A stretch of DNA of 64,000 bases from Candidatus Moraniibacteriota bacterium (GTDB taxonomy: Bacteria; Patescibacteriota; Minisyncoccia; Moranbacterales; UBA1568). The notes under the pieces are model-generated. The model did no database searches. It was not told the origin of the DNA and worked only from the letters and a program-made list of their open reading frames with translations. The DNA lies in the NCBI GenBank assembly GCA_963778555.1, contig CAVZUR010000003.1, positions 117,704 through 181,703 of the forward strand. Direction: 5' to 3'. Positions 4,872 to 44,799 of the stretch are shown here, one piece after another. Within the stretch, counting starts at the first letter, position 1; each line of letters starts with the position of its first letter. A program made the translations under genes and the position numbers.

Positions 4872-6164
4872 TCATAATGTCATCTTGTCAATCCTTATAG
4901 TAACTAGTGTAATTCCAAGCGCCAAGATAAATTGTCCTTGATATATATCCCATGGATAGTGATCAGTTACGATTATATACACAAGAAATATACTTAGTAG
5001 ATAATGCTGTCTCAATGTTTCACGTGGAACGCTTCTGAAAAATCTATAGATAAATATTGAAAAAACTATGAGTCCAACTATCCCCAACTCGACTAGGACT
5101 ATATATGGCACAAAATGAATTGGTTCATAATTCCACCAATTCAAATAATCTGTATTAGTGTAGTAACTTAGCCTATAGGATCCAATTCCTGAGCCAAGTT
5201 TAGTGATTTTTGTACTACTGAGTTGCTCAGAGAACTGAGTGAGTCTAGTTCTATATGACTGCACAGAGTCTCTTATAAGTAGTGTTTGAAAAACTAGCAC
5301 TAGTAAAAATAGAACTACAATCAGGACTCTATGTTTCACGTGGAACAATATATTCCAATTAGATCTTGCATAAAAATACGTCACTAGTAGACCGAAATAT
5401 GCGAAAATTGCTAGTTTTGACTGCGCTACCAGAATTGTAAGAAATGAAATGACTGACACTACTATTAAAATTCTTTGTTTCACGTGGAACAAACTCCCAA
5501 ACTCCAATAAATACACAAAAACTAGCAAGGCGTAGGCACTAAGTACATTTGGATGTGGAAATGTTCCATATCCACGTAATAGAGTGAAGCTAAAAATATT
5601 CGATTTTGCAATATTCTGGGCGGCAGTTCCCAAATTTGACTCATTTAAATAATTGAGTCCAATTGATTCAAAATTTATAACCTGAAGGCAGGATATGATC
5701 AGTTGAATAAATAGACTTAAAGACAAGATAACAGCGACTTCCTTTATGACTATTGTTCCACGTGAAACAACCAGATCAATGAACATTAATCCAAAAGAAA
5801 AAAGAAACATTAAATGAAAAATAGCTGCAATGCTCAAAATGGCATCAATAGATAAATATATCCCAATGAGTAAATATAGTACTCCAATATATAATATAAA
5901 ATGTTCCACGTGGAACTTCCAACGAGCTACGTTACTACATATTGACTTTATATCGAATTCATTGCTTTGTATTTTGATGAGTAAGGCTAGAAGAAGCAAA
6001 ATCTCACCAAAATATAGTGAGATGTCCATGTATTCATTGAATCCACCTGTGGATTGAGCACTACTAGGTATAAATATATAGCGCCAGGAAAAGGGTATTT
6101 GCCAAATATAGACATAAATCAAAATGTGATAAAACCTATTAAATGGTAAATTTATGGCTTGCAT
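4872..6164 (-). CDS. AT-rich polytopic membrane protein, Wzy/O-antigen-polymerase-like (low-GC, atypical composition)
   Basis: A 1293-bp ORF sits in roughly 33 percent GC DNA, which is unlikely by chance. It has at least 10 predicted TM helices. Wzy genes are typically AT-rich and horizontally acquired. Confidence 0.5.
   Translation of the reverse strand: MQAINLPFNRFYHILIYVYIWQIPFSWRYIFIPSSAQSTGGFNEYMDISLYFGEILLLLALLIKIQSNEFDIKSICSNVARWKFHVEHFILYIGVLYLLIGIYLSIDAILSIAAIFHLMFLFSFGLMFIDLVVSRGTIVIKEVAVILSLSLFIQLIISCLQVINFESIGLNYLNESNLGTAAQNIAKSNIFSFTLLRGYGTFPHPNVLSAYALLVFVYLLEFGSLFHVKQRILIVVSVISFLTILVAQSKLAIFAYFGLLVTYFYARSNWNILFHVKHRVLIVVLFLLVLVFQTLLIRDSVQSYRTRLTQFSEQLSSTKITKLGSGIGSYRLSYYTNTDYLNWWNYEPIHFVPYIVLVELGIVGLIVFSIFIYRFFRSVPRETLRQHYLLSIFLVYIIVTDHYPWDIYQGQFILALGITLVTIRIDKMTL
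5017..5916. repeat. five dispersed copies of a 14-bp (near-)palindrome GTTYCACGTGRAAC (extended TGTTTCACGTGGAACAA) inside the wzy-like ORF
   Basis: Copies lie at 5017-5030, 5333-5346, 5477-5490, 5755-5768 (opposite orientation) and 5903-5916 (perfect palindrome). They fall in different reading frames of the ORF and encode FHVKH, FHVKQ, FHVEH, VSRGT and VPRET. Confidence 0.85.
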
Positions 6165-6352: not shown

Positions 6353-6425
6353 GGGCCATTAGCTCATTTGGTAGAGCACTTCCATGGCATGGAAGGGGTG
6401 ACCGGTTCGAATCCGGTATGGTCCA
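6353..6425 (+). tRNA. tRNA-Ala(GGC)
   Basis: Hand-folded cloverleaf with a G3:U70 identity pair and anticodon loop ATGGCAT. No CCA is encoded. Confidence 0.85.
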
Positions 6426-6539
6426 CTTATACAAGCTGAGGGATATATTCATGATGACTTATCCTCAAGTTATCCACAGCTTTGCTGAAACACATACTTG
6501 GCTTGCCAGAGCGATGGTTTTCCTTTACAGTGACCACTC

Positions 6540-6611
6540 GCCCCTGTAGCTCAATGGATAGAGCTATCCCGTCCTAAGGGAGAGATCTAGGTTCGATTCC
6601 TGGTAGGGGCA
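6540..6611 (+). tRNA. tRNA-Arg(CCT)
   Basis: Hand-folded cloverleaf: acceptor GCCCCTG/TAGGGGC, anticodon loop GTCCTAA, discriminator A. Confidence 0.8.
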
Positions 6612-6615
6612 CACT

Positions 6616-6982: not shown

Positions 6983-7945
6983 ATGAGATTTTTCGGCAAA
7001 GAATTTAAGACGTTGCATTTTGTCATTGACAGGGCAGCATCTGTTCTGCTCGTTGCACACAAGCGTCCGGACCCGGATACCGTCGGCGCGAATTTCGCAT
7101 TGAAATATTATTTAAGGATCTGGGAAAAACAGTAACAATCGCCTGCTACGATCCATTTCCCGAGATGTTGGCGAGTCTCTTTCCACATGAAACATTCTAT
7201 CATCCCGATCAACTGGATCTTACAGTCATTCGATGCAGTCATTGCTGCTGATTCAGTCGATAGGGGCTTTCATTTGTTCGCGGATCGTTTCGATGAACGG
7301 CAGGTCGTGGCGCTCATCGATCATCACCCCGATATCTCGCTTTCAGCCGATATTATCATGATTGATCCGCACTATTCTTCCTCGAGTGAGTTGGTGTATC
7401 TCTATTTCCAGCAGACTCAGGCGCATATCAACAGAGACATCGCGACGGCGCTACTCACAGGCATCCTCTTCGATACCGGTAATTTTCAGCACTCGTCCGT
7501 TTCGCCACAGGTGATGGATATCGCATCGCAACTGATGAAGCTCGGCGCGCCCCTCACAAAGATCTCGAGTACCATTTTCACGAACAAGAACATCTCGGCC
7601 ATGAAGCTCTGGGGCAAGGCTTTTGAAAAAGCGAAGTTTCTCCCGCAGTCAGGACTCCTTGTCACTGCCGTCACGCGCTACGACATCGACGAATGCGAAG
7701 CAACATCGGACGATATTTACCAGGTCGCCTCCATCCTCTCGACCGTGCCTGAGGCGCGGTTTGCGCTCGTTTTATCGGAGCGCGATGAAGAGACGGTGCG
7801 GGGAAGTTTGCGCGCATCCGAACATCATGGCGTTGATGTTTCGGCTATCGCGCATCGGTTTGGCGGCGGCGGACATAAACTCGCGAGTGGTTTCGAAGTG
7901 AAAGGAAAGATCGTTGAGACTGCTGAGGGCTGGCATGTGATGTAA
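6983..7945 (+). pseudogene. DHH/DHHA1 phosphoesterase (NrnA-like oligoribonuclease/pAp phosphatase) interrupted by two apparent frameshifts (~7115 in TATTATTTAAGG; ~7190)
   Basis: The N-terminal motif HKRPDPDTVGANFAL is in one frame, LGKTVTIACYDPFPEML is in a second, and DAVIAADSVDR...LIDHHPD...DTGNF...GGGGHKLASG is in a third. This may be a sequencing indel rather than true decay. Confidence 0.55.
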
Positions 7946-30752: not shown

Positions 30753-30785
30753 AAAAGCGTGTATACTGGGAGAGCAAAGAAAACT
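30753..30785 (+). promoter_or_regulatory. conserved 5' block AAAAGCGTGTATACTGGGAGAG... shared with the paralog at 31675-31707 (extended -10-like TGTATACT plus GGGAG Shine-Dalgarno)
   Basis: About 33 nt are nearly identical immediately upstream of both pilin-like genes. Confidence 0.3.
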
Positions 30786-31550
30786 ATGAGTCAACACCTC
30801 AGTGCTTCCATTCTCGTGGTCGTCGGGATGATTTCGGTCGGGTTCGCGACCCCCGTCCAAGCGATGCACGATGGCCTGCTACACGAATACACTCAAGCCG
30901 CTTGCCAAGCTGAAACCGGCACCTGCAAACCTGGGGGCAATTCGTGCTTAGTGGGGCCTCAAGGAGAGGATTTGCTTGGATATTGTGATGGGCCAACCAA
31001 TGCCGTGAGCTGCTGTAAGCTCAAACCCACCGCCACCGCTCCCAATACGCAATTCAACTGTACTAATGTTCTGAGAGGAACCTGCAAGCTCGTCTCAGTC
31101 GGCTGTGGCGCCGGTATCACTCCCTTGGCTCCAGGGTCGAGCTGCGGCGTCGATGCGGCAGGAATCGGCCGCATCTGCTGCCCCATACCCGCGCCCGTCA
31201 CCGCTCCCACCCAAGTCACCGGCCCCAACCTGGGGAATTATCAGCTCCTGGAGCAGATTCCCGGCTCGACGAATACAGTCGGCAGCCTCAAGACCTATCT
31301 CGAGGATATGTATCGCTTCGCGTTCTGGACGGTTGGGATCGCGGTCGTTCTCATGCTCACAGTTGGCGGCTTCATGTATATGACGTCGGCAGGCAATACT
31401 TCGCGCATGTCGACAGCTAAAACGGTGATCTTCGATGCTATCCTCGGCCTCATTCTCGCACTCATGGCCTGGCTCTTCTTGTACGTCATCAACCCTGATT
31501 TGGTCAATCTCACGTTACCGACGGGGGTGACGGTGACGCCGGGAACTTAG
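30786..31550 (+). CDS. secreted Cys-rich protein with C-terminal TrbC/VirB2-pilin-like two-helix membrane module
   Basis: A signal peptide MSQHLSASILVVVGMISVGFATPVQA, then a Cys-rich region with 14 Cys, then FAFWTVGIAVVLMLTVGGFMYMTSAGNTSRMSTAKTVIFDAILGLILALMAWLFLYVI. Confidence 0.55.
   Translation: MSQHLSASILVVVGMISVGFATPVQAMHDGLLHEYTQAACQAETGTCKPGGNSCLVGPQGEDLLGYCDGPTNAVSCCKLKPTATAPNTQFNCTNVLRGTCKLVSVGCGAGITPLAPGSSCGVDAAGIGRICCPIPAPVTAPTQVTGPNLGNYQLLEQIPGSTNTVGSLKTYLEDMYRFAFWTVGIAVVLMLTVGGFMYMTSAGNTSRMSTAKTVIFDAILGLILALMAWLFLYVINPDLVNLTLPTGVTVTPGT
31197..31543 (+). repeat. 347-bp exact direct repeat (copy 1) encoding the shared TrbC/VirB2-like module; copy 2 at 32224-32570
   Basis: Identical byproduct ORFs 31295..31513 and 32322..32540. 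The offset is 1027 bp. Confidence 0.8.
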
Positions 31551-31628
31551 CTCAATATCTCAATAATCACAGCCTTGCATGTTGGATGATTGAGTCAAAA
31601 CATTGATTCACTGCCCGATCCGTCCTGA

Positions 31629-31661
31629 ATATGACTCGCGCGACGAGTCATATTTCTTTTC
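31629..31661 (+). terminator. intrinsic terminator: 10-bp perfect stem ATATGACTCG-CGCGA-CGAGTCATAT followed by TTCTTTTCTTCT
   Basis: A hairpin plus T-rich tract 80 bp after the stop codon of the first pilin-like gene. Confidence 0.55.
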
Positions 31662-31707
31662 TTCTCTCAGCCGAAAAGCGTGTATAATTGGAAAGGAAAA
31701 GAAAATC

Positions 31708-33183
31708 ATGAAAAAAAATGTCTCAACTTTTGTTTTTGGCACTGCCCTTGTCTTGATACTGCTTTCCTTTGCTGGACTAGCCAAGACTGCTTCTGCTCAA
31801 CAGTATACTCAACAGCAATGCCTTTCCATCTCTGGAGGTTTTGGTGCCTCCGAGGCTAATTGTGTTAGCAACGGGGATGTGAAGCTCGGGGATTATTTGA
31901 ATACCGCCTGCGTGGTAAATGGGGTTTGCTGCGGACCGATTTCAAGTCTTGGAAGAACGCCAAGCGGACCTGGCTGTGTCGCTCAAACTTGTGATCAGAT
32001 TGGAGGGGTGTGCACGACTGGGGCCTGCGGCACTGGCTTTGGTCCTGGACCAGCTGGGGCCTGCACCACTGGTCAATGCTGCATCCCAGGTGGAGGTGGT
32101 TCGTGTGCAAGCCAGGGTGGGACCTGTATGGGTAGCCTGACGCAAACCTGCGCTTCGCTCGGTCGGCAAACAGCCAGCGGGAGCTGCTTCACCCCGGGTC
32201 AGAATTGCTGCGGTGCTGCCATCGTCACCGCTCCCACCCAAGTCACCGGCCCCAACCTGGGGAATTATCAGCTCCTGGAGCAGATTCCCGGCTCGACGAA
32301 TACAGTCGGCAGCCTCAAGACCTATCTCGAGGATATGTATCGCTTCGCGTTCTGGACGGTTGGGATCGCGGTCGTTCTCATGCTCACAGTTGGCGGCTTC
32401 ATGTATATGACGTCGGCAGGCAATACTTCGCGCATGTCGACAGCTAAAACGGTGATCTTCGATGCTATCCTCGGCCTCATTCTCGCACTCATGGCCTGGC
32501 TCTTCTTGTACGTCATCAACCCTGATTTGGTCAATCTCACGTTACCGACGGGGGTGACGGTGACGCCGGGGGCCGCGACAGGGGTGGGGACGACTCCCGC
32601 GACACCTGCCGCTCCGACGATTACAACCCCTTTTCAATGCGGTCAAAACAGCGGTAATTGCAAGACCGGCAATCCTGCTAATCCCGTCTGCCTCCCGAAT
32701 GAGACCAAGATCGGGACCTGCGACGGGGGAGCAGGTGTGAACAACTGCTGCGCCGCCGCGGGAGTTGTCCCGGCCTGTAACTCGCTCCCCGGAGTCACCT
32801 GCGCGCCATGCGCCAATTGCTCTGTGATAGGCAGTAATATTCCATTCAAACCCTGCGGACTTGCACAGTGCTATCTGAACAGCGCACTGTTAGGAAAAAT
32901 ATCAAATATTACCGGCGTCTCGGGTTGGCGCGTCACTGAATCGTGGCCGCCGACGGTCGCACATATCAGCTTCTGTCATGCCAATGGCACGTGCGCCGAT
33001 ATTAACAATAGCGGCGGGCCAACCGACCCCGCGACCATCAAGACCTATTTTGATGCATTCCGAGCTGCTGGCCTGAATGTATTGTATGAGAATGGGGCGA
33101 GTTGCGCTCCCTACAATGCACTGGGTATAAATTGCGCGAGCTACCCCACCCAGACGAACCTCTCTTCGTTCCATGTTCAGTAG
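31708..33183 (+). CDS. secreted Cys-rich protein, paralog of 30786..31550, with identical central TrbC/VirB2-like module and additional Cys-rich N- and C-terminal domains
   Basis: The signal peptide is MKKNVSTFVFGTALVLILLSFAGLAKTASA. There are about 40 Cys in Gly-rich context, and the middle 115 aa are identical to gene 1. Confidence 0.55.
   Translation: MKKNVSTFVFGTALVLILLSFAGLAKTASAQQYTQQQCLSISGGFGASEANCVSNGDVKLGDYLNTACVVNGVCCGPISSLGRTPSGPGCVAQTCDQIGGVCTTGACGTGFGPGPAGACTTGQCCIPGGGGSCASQGGTCMGSLTQTCASLGRQTASGSCFTPGQNCCGAAIVTAPTQVTGPNLGNYQLLEQIPGSTNTVGSLKTYLEDMYRFAFWTVGIAVVLMLTVGGFMYMTSAGNTSRMSTAKTVIFDAILGLILALMAWLFLYVINPDLVNLTLPTGVTVTPGAATGVGTTPATPAAPTITTPFQCGQNSGNCKTGNPANPVCLPNETKIGTCDGGAGVNNCCAAAGVVPACNSLPGVTCAPCANCSVIGSNIPFKPCGLAQCYLNSALLGKISNITGVSGWRVTESWPPTVAHISFCHANGTCADINNSGGPTDPATIKTYFDAFRAAGLNVLYENGASCAPYNALGINCASYPTQTNLSSFHVQ
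32224..32570 (+). repeat. 347-bp exact direct repeat (copy 2)
   Basis: See copy 1. Confidence 0.8.
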
Positions 33184-33214: not shown

Positions 33215-34357
33215 ATGAAAAAACTCTTCATCATTTCCGGGTCATTCTTCCTCCTCGTCCTCGCGTTTCTCGCGGTCTATAATTTTGCGTTCAAGAACAA
33301 CACCTCCAATCCAATCGCCGATCCAGAGAAGAAGGCGGCTGCGGAGAAGAAAGACGAGACCGCCGCAGAAACAGTCACGCGCTCGGTCGCCTTTGAACAG
33401 ATTCTCACTGAGAACGTTTTCCAAGCTACCGCAGGGGAAACGGGGATCTTCTACTATTCCAAACGCGACAATCTGCTCAAAGAATCAACCTTCGACGGCA
33501 AACGCACCATACCGAGGACGGGACAGCTCCCTGGCACACCTGCGCGTATCGTCTGGTCGCCCAACTTACTCGGCGCCCTCTTTCTCGTGAAGGAAACCGG
33601 GGGTGATCTTTGGTATTACGCTGATCTCCGCAACCAAGCCATCACCCCGCTCAAAAAAGGCTGGTCTCGCCTCGCCTGGACCAGCCTCAGTGATCGTATC
33701 CTCTACCAATACACTGACCCTGTCACTGGCGACCGGACCATGAATATCGCCTATCCTGATGGTTCAAACTGGACCAAGCTCGCTGATTTAGGCAAAGATG
33801 ACCACTTCATCTCTGTTATCCCCCAATCGAGCCTAATTGCTTTCTGGCCAAAAACTGACGGGGGACGTGAGAGCGCGCTCGAGACCGTCAATATCAACGG
33901 CCAGAACCGCCGTACTGTCCTCGCCGGCCGGTTCGGTGCGGATTTCCTTTGGTCGCCAGACAGCCGGCGTATCCTCGTCCAAAGTATCACAGCTCGTAAT
34001 GGGAATATGCTCGTGCTCGGACTCGTTGACGAAAATGGCATCGGCTACAAGGATCTCCATGCGCCGACTCTCGTCTCAAAAGTCGCCTGGTCAAAGAACA
34101 ACGATACTTTCTATTATTCACTCCCGGGGGCTTTTCCATCCGACGTCATACTGCCCAACGATTATTTCGGCAAGCCAGCGTACAGCAAGGATACCTTCTG
34201 GAAAATGAACGTGCGGACCGGCAAGAAAGAGCGGCTCGTACCGCTCGGCGACATGCAGATGGCTTTCGATGCGACGGACGTATTCCTCTCTCCGACCGAG
34301 ACTGATCTCTACTTCGTCGATCGGACCACTGAAAAGCTCTACCGTATCACGCTCTGA
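33215..34357 (+). CDS. membrane-anchored beta-propeller protein (TolB/PD40-like repeats)
   Basis: An N-terminal TM helix. WSPN...LWSPDSRRIL...KVAWSKNNDTFYY recurs as a repeat typical of PD40-type propellers. Confidence 0.45.
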   Translation: MKKLFIISGSFFLLVLAFLAVYNFAFKNNTSNPIADPEKKAAAEKKDETAAETVTRSVAFEQILTENVFQATAGETGIFYYSKRDNLLKESTFDGKRTIPRTGQLPGTPARIVWSPNLLGALFLVKETGGDLWYYADLRNQAITPLKKGWSRLAWTSLSDRILYQYTDPVTGDRTMNIAYPDGSNWTKLADLGKDDHFISVIPQSSLIAFWPKTDGGRESALETVNINGQNRRTVLAGRFGADFLWSPDSRRILVQSITARNGNMLVLGLVDENGIGYKDLHAPTLVSKVAWSKNNDTFYYSLPGAFPSDVILPNDYFGKPAYSKDTFWKMNVRTGKKERLVPLGDMQMAFDATDVFLSPTETDLYFVDRTTEKLYRITL

Positions 34358-35366
34358 TCCGAAGTGCGGCTACACACAGCCCCAGACAGCCCCAGACGGC
34401 CAGCGCAAGGTCGTTTTTCATATACGGCGTATCAACCAGTCCCGAGACCAGGTAGAGTACTAGAAGCGCGCAGGCAAGCGTACTGAGGCCGCTGGACGCT
34501 TCTGGCGCCTCTACAGTCAACGCTCTCATCTGAGGATGCCGAAAGACATACGTCAGTACACCCAAGAAACCAATCAATGTAAGCACTCCACCCTCGAGGA
34601 GCAGGGTCAGGTAGAGATTGTGCGGCGTCGGCACCGCCCATTCGAGGTAGGGCTGGTAGAGAGGTTGATAACCCAGATAGACTTCCTGGAACCGCCCTGG
34701 CCCGATGCCCCATGGGAAACTCTCGGTGACCGCCCTCCCTGCGACACGCCAGATTATGAGACGCGACGCGAGAGACGTACGGCTATCGCCCGAAATAAGA
34801 CTCTGCCATTTCTGAGACTCTTGCTCTTGGAAAATTCCAATTCCTCCCAGACAGAGCAATAGTCCGAGAATAAGGACGAACTGACGACGCTTGGTTCGCC
34901 ACTGCATCCAGGCCAGCGAGAGGAGTCCGACCATAACCCCTAGCCAGGTGCTGTACGAATGCGTCAGGTACAGTACCACGACAATCAGGCTGCCGGACAA
35001 GGCGGTCAGCACACGGATGAGAATCGATCGATACGAACTAAAGAAGAAAATCGATAGCGGCACTCCCGGGGCTAAGAGCAGCGCAAGATAATTCGCTGAC
35101 TGATAGGGGCCGGCGAGTCGGCCATCATAGAGGAACCAGCCGAAGGAAGCCGCTGTTAAACTCGCACCCGCAGCAGCTGAAAGACCAAGAAGCCACGCTC
35201 CAAAGAGCCACACGAGCCGCTCACGCGTCGCTCCCCAGAAGATGATGAGGAGACTGAAGAATCCGGGGATGAAATAGAAACTTTTTATTTTCCCAAGGCC
35301 GGAAGGCACATGCGGATTGGTAAAATACGACAGTACAACTCCCGCAATGAAGAGTCCGAGCCACAC
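34347..35366 (-). CDS. O-antigen ligase/polymerase family membrane protein (Wzy_C-like)
   Basis: It has at least 10 TM helices, the Wzy_C-like loop HNLYLTLLLEGGVLTLIGFLG and a large periplasmic loop. Confidence 0.6.
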   Translation of the reverse strand: MWLGLFIAGVVLSYFTNPHVPSGLGKIKSFYFIPGFFSLLIIFWGATRERLVWLFGAWLLGLSAAAGASLTAASFGWFLYDGRLAGPYQSANYLALLLAPGVPLSIFFFSSYRSILIRVLTALSGSLIVVVLYLTHSYSTWLGVMVGLLSLAWMQWRTKRRQFVLILGLLLCLGGIGIFQEQESQKWQSLISGDSRTSLASRLIIWRVAGRAVTESFPWGIGPGRFQEVYLGYQPLYQPYLEWAVPTPHNLYLTLLLEGGVLTLIGFLGVLTYVFRHPQMRALTVEAPEASSGLSTLACALLVLYLVSGLVDTPYMKNDLALAVWGCLGLCVAALRIRA

Positions 35367-41796: not shown

Positions 41797-42033
41797 AGGT
41801 TATAAGAAATACATGTAGTCCAATTTTATTTTAAACAAAGGGAAAAGTCAACCTGGCCGGGGTCAATGCACCACCTTTCCCTCATTTTTTACCCACTTCT
41901 AAATTAAGTCAGCGACTTTTCTCCCTCCTTATTTTTTCGGCCATTTATACACTGATTCTCCACATATTATGCACTCTTCATTCTCGATGAAGTTGGCGGC
42001 ACATGGTACAATCAGATTTACTTGCTTTGCGCT

Positions 42034-43458
42034 ATGACCAACGAAGAACTCTGGAAAGCGGCTCTTGGCCAGATAGAACTTTCCCTTTCTAAAGCCAATT
42101 TCATTACCTGGTTTAAAAATACCTCCATCCTTTCGCAAGAGAGTGGTCGGGTTGTTATTGGTGTCCCGAACGGATTTGCTAAGGAGTGGCTGGAGAATAA
42201 GTATAATCTCTACATCATTAAAGCCCTCAAAAGCCTAGATCCGAGCATCCAGGATATTAAATGCGCTATTACGCCTCAGGGCGTACGGCTAACAGCTCCC
42301 CAGACTTTTAAGAAGTCTATGGATGCGGTTCGGCCTGCTGATGGACAGATCAACACTGCGCCCGCCGGGTTCTCTCGGAAAAAAATATCCGCGAAGCCGT
42401 CTTTGACTTCTCCGAGTGGAGATACCTACTCCCATAATCTCAATAGCCGGTACACTTTTGATAATTTTATCGTCGCAGAGAACAATGAGCTCGCCCGGGC
42501 CGCTTGTTTCGCAATTTCACAAAACCTCGGGCAACTCTATAATCCTCTTTTCATCTACGGCGGTGTGGGACTCGGGAAAACTCACTTGCTTCAAGCACTC
42601 GGGAACGAAATCACGCTCAAACAGCCTGAAAAGCGGGTAAAATACATTACATCCGAGCGCTTCACGAGCGAACTTGTCGAGTCAATAAAAAATCAGACTG
42701 TTGACCAGTTCAAGACTGCGTACGAACACATCGACCTTTTAATTATTGATGATGTTCAGTTTCTTTCGGGTCGAGAGAAGACCCAGAATGAGTTTTTTCA
42801 TATCTTTAATGCGCTCTATCAGCTCAATAAGCAGATTGTTATTTCAAGTGACCGAACACCAAAATCAATCCCGACCTTGGAGGAACGGCTGCGGTCTCGG
42901 TTTGAAGGGGGGATGATCGCGGATATTAGCCGCCCAAGCCTAGAAACCCGCGTTGCTATCCTCCAAACCAAAGCTCAAGAGCGGGGAGTCGCTATCGATC
43001 CTGCCTCTATTCAGTTCATTGCTGAGCATGTAAAAAATAATATCCGAGAACTCGAGGGGGCACTCTCGCGTGTCTTTGCTTATAGCGAGTTTCAGCAAGT
43101 CCCCATCACTTTCCCTTTAGTCCAAAAAGCTCTTTCAGATATGTTGGTGCAAACAAAAAAGTCTGTGAGGCTTGATGATATCGTGCAGGTTGTAAGTGAT
43201 TTCTACGGGGTTCCAGTGGAGGAGATGGTGAAAAAGGGACGCAAGAAAGAAGTTGCCCATCCCCGTCAGATAGCGATGTACCTCCTCCGTACCGAGCTGG
43301 ACACCCCTTTTTCTACAATTGGTACATTTTTCGGTGGTCGAGATCACACAACCGTACTGCACGCGGTAGAAAAAGTGAGTCAGAGTAAAGAAAGCCATCT
43401 CCGCATCAAAGAAGAACTCCTTTCGTTGAAAGAAAAATTACAAACGCCGGCTGTATAA
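42034..43458 (+). CDS. dnaA: chromosomal replication initiator DnaA
   Basis: Walker A (GGVGLGKTHLLQA), the AAA+ sensor motifs and a C-terminal DNA-binding domain. Confidence 0.95.
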   Translation: MTNEELWKAALGQIELSLSKANFITWFKNTSILSQESGRVVIGVPNGFAKEWLENKYNLYIIKALKSLDPSIQDIKCAITPQGVRLTAPQTFKKSMDAVRPADGQINTAPAGFSRKKISAKPSLTSPSGDTYSHNLNSRYTFDNFIVAENNELARAACFAISQNLGQLYNPLFIYGGVGLGKTHLLQALGNEITLKQPEKRVKYITSERFTSELVESIKNQTVDQFKTAYEHIDLLIIDDVQFLSGREKTQNEFFHIFNALYQLNKQIVISSDRTPKSIPTLEERLRSRFEGGMIADISRPSLETRVAILQTKAQERGVAIDPASIQFIAEHVKNNIRELEGALSRVFAYSEFQQVPITFPLVQKALSDMLVQTKKSVRLDDIVQVVSDFYGVPVEEMVKKGRKKEVAHPRQIAMYLLRTELDTPFSTIGTFFGGRDHTTVLHAVEKVSQSKESHLRIKEELLSLKEKLQTPAV

Positions 43459-43668: not shown

Positions 43669-44799
43669 ATGAAACTCACCTGCACCCAAGAAAATCTTCG
43701 TAACGCTCTTTCTTTATTAGAGCGTGTTGTTGGGCGGCAAAGCTCGCTGCCTATCCTAAGTAATATTTTATTTGAGACGGAACAAGGGAGACTTTGTCTT
43801 TCAGCGACTAATCTGGAAATTGGGATAATCACTTCAATTGGAGCAAAAATCGAGTCGGAAGGCAAAATAACAGTACCAGCAAAACTGATCATTAATTTCA
43901 TCCAAAATCTTGCCGATGATCAAATTGTGAGTATTGAACAGATGGGGACGCAAGTGGTAGTCGTAAGTGGGGACTATACGGTAAAAATTAATGGATTAGA
44001 TAGTAAGGATTTCCCTATTATTCCTCGGAGGAGTGGTGGAAAAGTTTTTTTACTTCCAACAAATCCACTTCGTGAGGGACTCCAAAAAACACTCTTCTGT
44101 GTTTCTTTAAACGAAAGCCGTCCTGAACTTACAGGTGTCCTTTTTGGATTTCGAGCGGGGAAGTTCTTTCTGGCGGCAACAGATAGTTTTCGTCTCGCCG
44201 AGTGGAGTATGCAAGAATCAGCCGGTGGGGATATCAATCAGGAAGAGGGGCAGGAAGGAGTAGCGATTATCCCAGCGTACACCCTTCAAGAAGTATTGCG
44301 TACCTTACAGCAATCCTCAGACCAGGTAGGGGTTTCACTTGAGGAAAATCAGGTGTTCTTTGAAATTGGGAATACCCGCATTGTTTCAAGACTGATCAAC
44401 GGGAGATTCCCTGAGTATCAAACAATTATGCCAAAACAGTATTCTCTAGAAGTAGCCGTTGGCCAGGAAGAATTCCAAAGAGCTTTGAAAATAGCCACCT
44501 CTTTTTCCGTTTATAGCACTAATGAGGTCGTCTTCCGGTTGAATAACGAGGAAAAGCGGCTTGAAATCGAGTCGCATTCCCAAGGTATTGGAGAACAAAT
44601 CGCAAAAATCCCCTACAGTGGGGAGGTTGGGCAACCATTCCAGATCGTCTTCAGTCCGCGCTATATTCTGGAGGGTGTAGCCGCCCAACGCGGGGGGCAG
44701 ACTATCCTCTCCTTCAATTCCCCAGCCACCCCAGCCAAAATTTCTTCAGGGGTGGGGCAATCCGGGTACACGTACATTGTGATGCCTATCCGAAAATAG
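43669..44799 (+). CDS. dnaN: DNA polymerase III beta sliding clamp
   Basis: A 376-aa protein in three-domain clamp layout, downstream of dnaA. Confidence 0.9.
   Translation: MKLTCTQENLRNALSLLERVVGRQSSLPILSNILFETEQGRLCLSATNLEIGIITSIGAKIESEGKITVPAKLIINFIQNLADDQIVSIEQMGTQVVVVSGDYTVKINGLDSKDFPIIPRRSGGKVFLLPTNPLREGLQKTLFCVSLNESRPELTGVLFGFRAGKFFLAATDSFRLAEWSMQESAGGDINQEEGQEGVAIIPAYTLQEVLRTLQQSSDQVGVSLEENQVFFEIGNTRIVSRLINGRFPEYQTIMPKQYSLEVAVGQEEFQRALKIATSFSVYSTNEVVFRLNNEEKRLEIESHSQGIGEQIAKIPYSGEVGQPFQIVFSPRYILEGVAAQRGGQTILSFNSPATPAKISSGVGQSGYTYIVMPIRK

Follow-up and report, generated by a model that had tools for sequence, protein, structure and literature searches.

What five copies of a short palindrome are doing within 900 bp of a single AT-rich gene is the question raised by a 64,000-nucleotide stretch of the genome of a Candidatus Moraniibacteriota bacterium (contig CAVZUR010000003.1, positions 117,704 to 181,703; this whole stretch is referred to here as the window), a member of the CPR (Candidate Phyla Radiation, also called Patescibacteria). 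The gene in question (the host gene; window positions 4872-6164, minus strand, GC content 0.33, GC content at third codon positions (GC3) 0.30) is an open reading frame (ORF) for a polytopic, WaaL/Wzy_C-like membrane protein of 430 amino acids. The palindromes are very probably chromosomal parS sites that together make up the origin-proximal centromere of this chromosome, with the array written into one conserved gene. Supporting this assignment are the identity of the sequence with parS, the proximity of the array to the origin, its uniqueness within the 64 kb, purifying selection on the sites at the level of the DNA, and the linkage of the same motif to parAB elsewhere.

Identity and position of the palindromes

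The initial annotation of this DNA had described five copies of a 14-bp palindrome, at a copy number beyond chance, in a gene of about 33 percent GC; three of the copies were said to share a 17-mer, and all five to be translated in two frames of one ORF, giving FHVKH, FHVKQ, FHVEH, VSRGT and VPRET. These statements hold on recounting. The 14-mer GTTCCACGTGGAAC is present as one exact copy (5903-5916) and four copies with one mismatch each (at 5017, 5333, 5477 and 5755), and the only further match in the window, at 7180, has 3 mismatches; none of 100 dinucleotide-preserving shuffles of the window reached 6 matches to GTTCCACGTGGAAC, so that no shuffle equalled the observed count. The 17-mer TGTTTCACGTGGAACAA occurs exactly three times (5332 and 5476 on the plus strand, 5753 on the minus strand) where none is expected, translation returns the five peptides in their two frames, and the GC content of the gene is 0.333.

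Addition of one base to each side of the 14-mer gives a 16-bp unit, TGTT(T/C)CACGTG(G/A)AACA. Compared with the chromosomal parS consensus, TGTTNCACGTGAAACA, which stands in this exact form in a review of chromosomal ParB proteins together with the rule that parS lies in the ori domain (PMC7022226), three of the five sites are exact, one has a single mismatch and one has two. When up to 3 mismatches are allowed, TGTTNCACGTGAAACA has 11 matches in the window against a shuffle mean of 1.56, and the 16-bp form TGTTNCACGTGNAACA, at up to two mismatches, has no site outside the five anywhere in the 64 kb.

The five 16-bp copies span 5016-5917 and all lie within the minus-strand ORF. The first in gene order (5902-5917; TGTTCCACGTGGAACT, perfectly palindromic in its 14-bp core) differs from TGTTNCACGTGNAACA by 1 mismatch, encodes K-FHVEH (residues 83-88) in frame 1 and keeps its alignment column in 13 of 13 orthologs. 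The second (5754-5769; TGTTCCACGTGAAACA) is an exact match to the parS consensus and encodes VSRGT (residues 133-137) in frame 2. Two further exact matches, both read on the minus strand and in frame 1, form the third site (5476-5491; L-FHVKQ, residues 225-230) and the fourth (5332-5347; L-FHVKH, residues 273-278), and the fifth (CGTTCCACGTGAAACA, 5016-5031, minus strand, 1 mismatch) encodes VPRET (residues 379-383) in frame 2. As the sites are palindromes, their 'orientation' amounts only to the choice of base at two degenerate positions.

The array lies about 36 kb from the origin markers of the window, dnaA (42022-43458) and dnaN (43669-44799), which are identified by their Pfam domains on the plus strand, with yidC and jag upstream on the opposite strand. 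The minimum of the cumulative GC skew falls near 47-49 kb, and a region of low GC content is found around 41-45 kb. In a second genome (L009/L082) the distance between the host gene and dnaA is about 27 kb, and the gene lies to the same side of dnaA as it does in the window; for scale, the complete chromosome of a Moraniibacteriota relative measures 1.22 Mb. This proximity to dnaA and dnaN argues for an origin-proximal centromere array rather than a recombination switch.

A separate feature of this region is a tandem pair of DnaA boxes, TTATCCTCA and TTATCCACA, which lie 11 bp apart at 6459-6478, about 300 bp upstream of the host gene and between the genes for tRNA-Ala (6353-6426) and tRNA-Arg (6540-6612). 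The pair is contained in a conserved block, TGTGGATAAC-N5-GATAAGT, which 11 of 14 orthologous loci have at a distance of 100-540 bp upstream of the host gene, and the upstream zones (7.6 kb in all) hold 6 perfect DnaA boxes against 0.14 expected (Poisson P ~9e-9). It may be a place where DnaA binds beside the centromere.

The identity of the 16-mer was also approached from the opposite direction, through 80 metagenome contigs (L088-L167) for which a triple array of the 16-mer was the sole criterion of choice, whatever their genes. ParA is encoded in 43 and ParB in 32 of the 80 fetched stretches, usually adjoining the array, which comprises 3 to 17 sites with the copies tens of bp apart. This association with parAB, in contigs chosen without regard to gene content, independently confirms the identity of the 16-mer as parS. 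Just one of the 80 arrays is situated in a host-family gene. A few contigs show that other genes can likewise contain in-frame arrays, namely mnmG/gidA genes with three sites per ORF (L092 2796-4862, L128 2455-4608 and L136 3371-5404) and dnaX genes with two and four (L097 2714-4420 and L159 105-1859, respectively); two gidA genes seem to have their sites in an insertion by which the GIDA domain is split. It may be that origin-proximal genes harbour centromere arrays more often than is generally appreciated.

Conservation and distribution of the sites

In an alignment of 28 homologs of the host protein, all five parS-encoded peptides occupy the same columns, and the residues that vary within them (K/E, S/P, G/E and H/Q) correspond to the two degenerate parS positions or to third-codon positions. 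The five core sites are likewise found at the same alignment columns in 13 of 13 orthologous genes, each of which has 5-7 sites. Two reading frames are used by the sites of the window gene and three across the family: the second site of two orthologs (L009 and L010) is read in the third frame, as CSTWN, a few codons away from the frame-2 position, and another ortholog (L011) has the frame-2 site as well as a third-frame site, with all three genes carrying extra sites. Among the columns of the 13 orthologs that hold a conserved residue with degenerate codons, 13 of 18 inside the sites keep to one codon, versus 4 of 65 elsewhere, and the commonest codon has an average share of 0.97 inside the sites versus 0.65 elsewhere (Mann-Whitney p = 3.6e-9). 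The sites enforce the codons CAC, GTG and CGT, whereas the rest of the host gene prefers CAT, GTT/GTA and AGA. It is therefore strongly supported that selection acts on the DNA of the sites, independent of the reading frame, as had been proposed from the window sequence; the use of three frames in the orthologs, and synonymous positions that are frozen only inside the sites, show the conserved entity to be DNA and not a set of single-frame codons. The peptides FHV[EK][HQ], V[SP]R[GE]T and CSTWN are, in this family, footprints of DNA sites rather than protein motifs.

The confinement of the sites to the host gene was assessed in 80 relatives' loci from species-representative genomes, which were fetched by peptide patterns that do not overlap the parS peptides; a site was counted as parS-like with at most one mismatch. 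In these loci the host gene accounts for 90 sites and its surroundings up to 1.5 kb for another 15, and the other 943 kb of flanking sequence are free of them, so that, in the window and in these flanks, the motif is restricted to the gene and its 1.5 kb surroundings. Each of the 11 close or intermediate orthologs has 3-6 sites, or 5-7 when a second mismatch is tolerated. Among the distant relatives (24-30% identity), 8 of 69 have at least two sites, some of them in the same loops in other frames, and the metagenome-assembled genomes (MAGs) from which the site-bearing members derive are labelled Doudnabacteria, Saccharibacteria, Moraniibacteriota and others. At the protein level, three or more parS-encoded peptides are found in 94 of the 148 best family representatives, with some proteins containing 14-18 and shuffled sequences only 0.003 per protein; this figure is biased by the presence of parS peptides in the query profile, and the unbiased estimate is the count in the 80 loci.

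The most expanded example examined as DNA confirms the use of the peptides as a proxy. In this relative 18 sites, 16 of which are the identical palindrome TGTTCCACGTGGAACA, are packed in all three frames into one ORF of 1.93 kb that occupies the same syntenic position as the host gene, and no site lies outside the ORF. A different arrangement is observed in a Paceibacterota contig (L015), where eight parS-like sites fall within ~470 bp (11825-12296), in a gap without any ORF of at least 50 amino acids, directly downstream of a Wzy_C-like gene and ~7.6 kb upstream of dnaA. The link between the Wzy_C gene and parS thus persists even with an intergenic array.

Two further observations concern the relatives. 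In three loci (L027, L065 and L072) two perfect TGTTCCACGTGGAACA sites, ~850-950 bp apart, are located ~400-1350 bp upstream of the Wzy_C-like gene and outside it. Also, several MAGs with a Moraniibacteriota-type locus (L001, L003, L004, L006, L009, L010 and others) are labelled 'uncultured Bdellovibrionales', 'Gammaproteobacteria' or 'Saccharibacteria'; the L009 contig has a Moraniibacteriota-like gene order and a DnaA 70% identical to that of the window, and some of the taxonomic labels therefore look unreliable.

The host gene and its protein

Against the Pfam family PF04932 (Wzy_C) the host protein scores 17.6 bits (E = 0.0033), which is below the gathering cut-off of 31.7. It has ~36 close relatives at ~38-54% identity, several of them labelled Candidatus Moraniibacteriota, and ~70 more distant matches (E 1e-20 to 1e-4), nearly all of which are annotated with PF04932; a profile of the family finds 6,863 representatives at E <= 1e-3 and 370 at E <= 1e-30 among 1.84 billion representative proteins. 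The AlphaFold (AF2) model is a bundle of long helices (predicted local distance difference test score 81.5; predicted template-modelling (TM) score 0.86), for which the best match in the PDB is the O-antigen ligase WaaL (7tpg_B), a weak one (E = 8e-3, TM 0.45-0.48). The description of the protein as WaaL/Wzy_C-like accordingly draws on its PF04932-carrying homologs and on the weak fold match, the Pfam score itself being sub-threshold.

In the model, the five parS-encoded peptides fall at five short inter-helix turns on one face of the protein, and segments that are invariant in the alignment (RGYGTFPHPN, GSGIGTYRLSY...WWNYEPxH and DHYxWDIYQG) lie in loops of the opposite face and are presumably catalytic. 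WaaL has 12 helices with both ends inside the cell. If the host protein shares this topology, as seems plausible, each cytoplasmic turn would bear one parS, and the basic residues that the sites encode would suit the cytoplasmic side. In the expanded relatives, the same turns have grown into loops packed with sites, 11-17 residues apart.

The gene is conserved, syntenic and vertically inherited. Its surroundings in the window (PMSR, 3D, metallophosphatase, UDG, DHH and RbfA on one side; a TSP3-repeat protein and, farther along, FtsH on the other) have the same order in the complete 1.22-Mb Moraniibacteriota chromosome and in the Logan contig of the 18-site relative. Its composition is set apart from that of its neighbours, with a GC3 of 0.30 versus 0.42-0.70 for the other genes of the window, including membrane proteins of equal hydrophobicity (a flippase, 0.60; a Wzy_C paralog, 0.61; a 7-TM protein, 0.70). 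Every close ortholog is similarly low in GC (0.27-0.38 versus 0.47-0.53 outside), which marks the low GC content as a maintained property of the centromere gene and not as a sign of recent transfer. Both the conservation of synteny and the recurrence of the AT-richness in each ortholog contradict the suggestion in the initial annotation that this is a foreign AT-rich gene.

The paralog just mentioned, a second Wzy_C-family gene on the minus strand (34347-35366; Pfam E = 3e-20, GC3 0.61), has no parS; with its normal composition, it shows the AT-richness and the sites to be specific to one of the two paralogs. Promoter-like matches are at chance level (12 found versus 9.0 +/- 3.1 expected). A second element frozen at the DNA level is found in the host gene at 5940-5948 (AAGTCAATA on the minus strand, codons K73-S74-I75), in the putative first cytoplasmic loop and ~10 codons upstream of the first parS site (up to ~20 in orthologs). 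Its serine is encoded by TCA in 13 of 13 orthologs and its lysine by AAG in 11 of 11, although the host gene prefers AAA; on the plus strand the element reads TATTGACTT and holds a -35-like TTGACT. The surface genes elsewhere in the window (13563-17549 and 30759-33183) are typical of the CPR and bear no relation to the parS sites: they encode a 1,328-residue protein in which five PA14 stretches are combined with PKD and a glucose/sorbosone dehydrogenase domain, as well as two proteins with type IV secretion pilin domains.

Function of the array and comparison with known systems

By analogy with characterised systems, ParB/Spo0J dimers would recognise each 16-bp site through their helix-turn-helix (HTH) domain, and bound ParB would load as sliding clamps dependent on cytidine triphosphate, spread over the neighbouring DNA and condense the region. 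The resulting partition complex would organise the origin region, typically by SMC loading, and segregation would be driven via ParA where ParA exists. The encoded peptides (FHV[K/E][H/Q] and V[S/P]R[G/E]T) are tolerated in short turns of the putative cytoplasmic face. The parS-in-gene arrangement is passed on by inheritance across the whole orthologous family, and one relative has it enlarged to 18 sites.

Several points weigh against the centromere assignment. The binding, spreading and segregation role is taken from other organisms only. Dense parS arrays usually adjoin parAB, unlike the array of the window, and no homolog of ParB or ParA was detected in the 64-kb window or in 81 related loci (~1.4 Mb) by tblastn (E < 1e-5) or phmmer (E <= 1) with Soj and Spo0J queries, the latter validated against PDB 6SDK. 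In addition, DnaA boxes are not enriched across the window (15 found versus 10.7 expected), and the position of oriC is consequently one given by gene markers and GC skew, not that of a mapped origin.

The dnaA neighbourhoods in the genomes of three relatives contain no parAB, and a generic ParB-core search of a 5.8-billion-protein set gave, among the best 120 matches listed, mostly Clostridia-like proteins and none from the CPR; some CPR genome papers make no mention of ParB in the main text. The ParB family (PF02195/K03497) is nevertheless recorded in 1,717 CPR genomes, compared with 1,985 for GyrB, 617 for a ParA-like family and 1,016 for SMC, the last two being flagged as depleted (PMC6744442, Supplementary Data 1). 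With ParB nearly as widespread as GyrB, and the ParA-like family much less so, a ParB reader protein is very likely to be present in the genome of the window, and ParA may well be absent; many CPR bacteria may run ParB-parS without ParA. No published description of parS or of ParB organisation in the CPR/Patescibacteria was found in a search that covered journals other than those on subscription.

A further, rather speculative proposal is that the centromere and its host gene are functionally coupled, by membrane tethering or by ParB-gated expression. With the array inside the gene of a polytopic membrane protein, the transertion of that protein, in which transcription is coupled to translation and to insertion into the membrane, would hold the ParB-parS complex, and the origin along with it, at the membrane. 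Such tethering would provide a ParA-independent anchor for ultra-small CPR cells, in which ParA is reported to be depleted and ParB retained (PMC6744442). A second form of coupling, which might replace or accompany the first, is that replication state governs the expression of the putative envelope enzyme through ParB occupancy. In that case, the conserved low GC3 and the adjoining pair of DnaA boxes would be parts of one origin-region module.

Of the other roles that might be assigned to the palindromes, the least improbable, though still quite unlikely, is that of operators through which a dedicated regulator (an HTH protein other than ParB, or a Noc- or KorB-like ParB paralog) controls the Wzy_C-like gene. 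That every site lies inside one gene with none elsewhere locally, and that no parAB is nearby, would be expected of operators; moreover, ParB itself affects the expression of genes near parS, for example in P. aeruginosa. The sequence, however, is the canonical chromosomal parS and not a Noc or KorB site, arrays of the same 16-mer accompany parAB in unrelated contigs, three genomes have the array close to the origin, and an expansion to 18 sites is typical of centromeres, not of operators. If the binding of ParB has a side-effect on regulation, this agrees with the centromere assignment and does not supplant it. The operator for an HTH regulator that had been considered in the initial annotation was close in one respect, given that ParB binds parS through an HTH domain; the motif had not been recognised as parS.

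The reading favoured at first, in which the palindromes serve as crossover sites of a site-specific recombinase in a shufflon-like switch, so that a surface-polysaccharide enzyme would undergo phase or antigenic variation, is very hard to reconcile with the present data. It was suggested by several copies in both 'orientations' inside a surface-related gene, and resolvase and recombinase families are listed as common in CPR genomes (PMC6744442, table). The sites are palindromic, however, and so without directionality; a search of 49 ORFs of the window revealed no integrase, resolvase or invertase domain; and the 28 proteins and 13 genes compared are colinear, with intact ORFs and the same order of sites. 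Inversion of the segments between sites would also destroy the protein, since these segments include conserved, presumably catalytic loops.

Comparably slight is the chance that the sites are restriction-modification or methylation targets (through the core CACGTG) or nucleoid-protein silencing sites on an acquired AT-rich gene, both of which had also been raised. CACGTG is a palindromic hexamer of the kind typical for type II sites, and the host gene is indeed far more AT-rich than its surroundings. Against this, 14 fixed bases are conserved rather than 6, restriction targets are usually avoided and not piled up to 18 copies, and the gene is not foreign, with synteny and AT-richness kept in all orthologs at 32-50% protein identity; a conserved 16-bp unit with the very sequence of the centromere consensus is left unexplained by either idea. 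An ordinary protein sequence repeat, or a genome-wide dispersed element resembling repetitive extragenic palindromes or miniature inverted-repeat transposable elements, is refuted, despite the conservation of the parS peptides in every homolog and the longer peptide context, LFHVK[HQ]R[VI]LIVV, shared by the third and fourth sites, by the occurrence of one DNA motif in three frames (including a frame switch near one position between lineages), by synonymous positions frozen only inside the motif, and by its absence from the 943 kb of flanking sequence and from the rest of the window.

The recognition of the palindromes as parS identifies the chromosomal centromere of an uncultivated CPR lineage, and it provides a case of dual coding in which a protein-binding DNA array and the gene of a conserved putative enzyme have shared nucleotides over long evolution, in three frames and with 5 to 18 sites per gene. 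In practical terms, the array is a built-in marker of the origin region in CPR metagenome bins, and the signature of parS-encoded peptides flags parS in protein databases. It also raises the question of how cells that are often without ParA position their origins.

Among known systems, shufflons and invertible switches likewise place short repeats in or beside a surface-structure gene but require a dedicated recombinase and directional sites and yield rearranged variants, none of which were found for the window array (49 ORFs, 13 genes and 28 proteins). The F sopC and P1 parS loci resemble the window array in the nucleation of one partition complex by many tandem binding sites, and differ in sequence and in being non-coding, whereas that array shares its DNA with a conserved and apparently functional ORF. 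The metagenome arrays beside parAB consist of several copies of the same 16-mer; unlike the window array, they are mostly short and lie directly beside parAB. In P. aeruginosa, 9 of 10 predicted parS sites are within coding sequences (PMC4368675), so that intragenic parS is already established. The cluster of parS1-4 close to oriC in that species is a further likeness, but its sites are single ones in unrelated genes, with no sign of one conserved host gene or of multi-frame use in one ORF.

A close counterpart is the Spo0J/parS system of B. subtilis, in which the identical 16-bp palindrome is present at several origin-proximal sites and can lie in coding sequence. Indeed, B. subtilis Spo0J contains VPRET, the same peptide as that encoded by the fifth site of the window, and the spo0J gene reportedly (in work of Lin and Grossman from 1998) carries its own parS at that position. 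The 10 B. subtilis sites are, however, distributed across much of the chromosome, among various genes and close to parAB, whereas the window has five sites within 900 bp of one gene, codon-for-codon conservation within the lineage and no parAB. The kind of element, a chromosomal centromere, is ordinary; its arrangement is unusual and conserved. What appears to be new is the combination of features: a whole array in one gene, with one site per putative cytoplasmic turn, kept lineage-wide at 32-50% protein identity, with up to 18 sites in three frames, located away from parAB and in a gene whose low GC3 is maintained.

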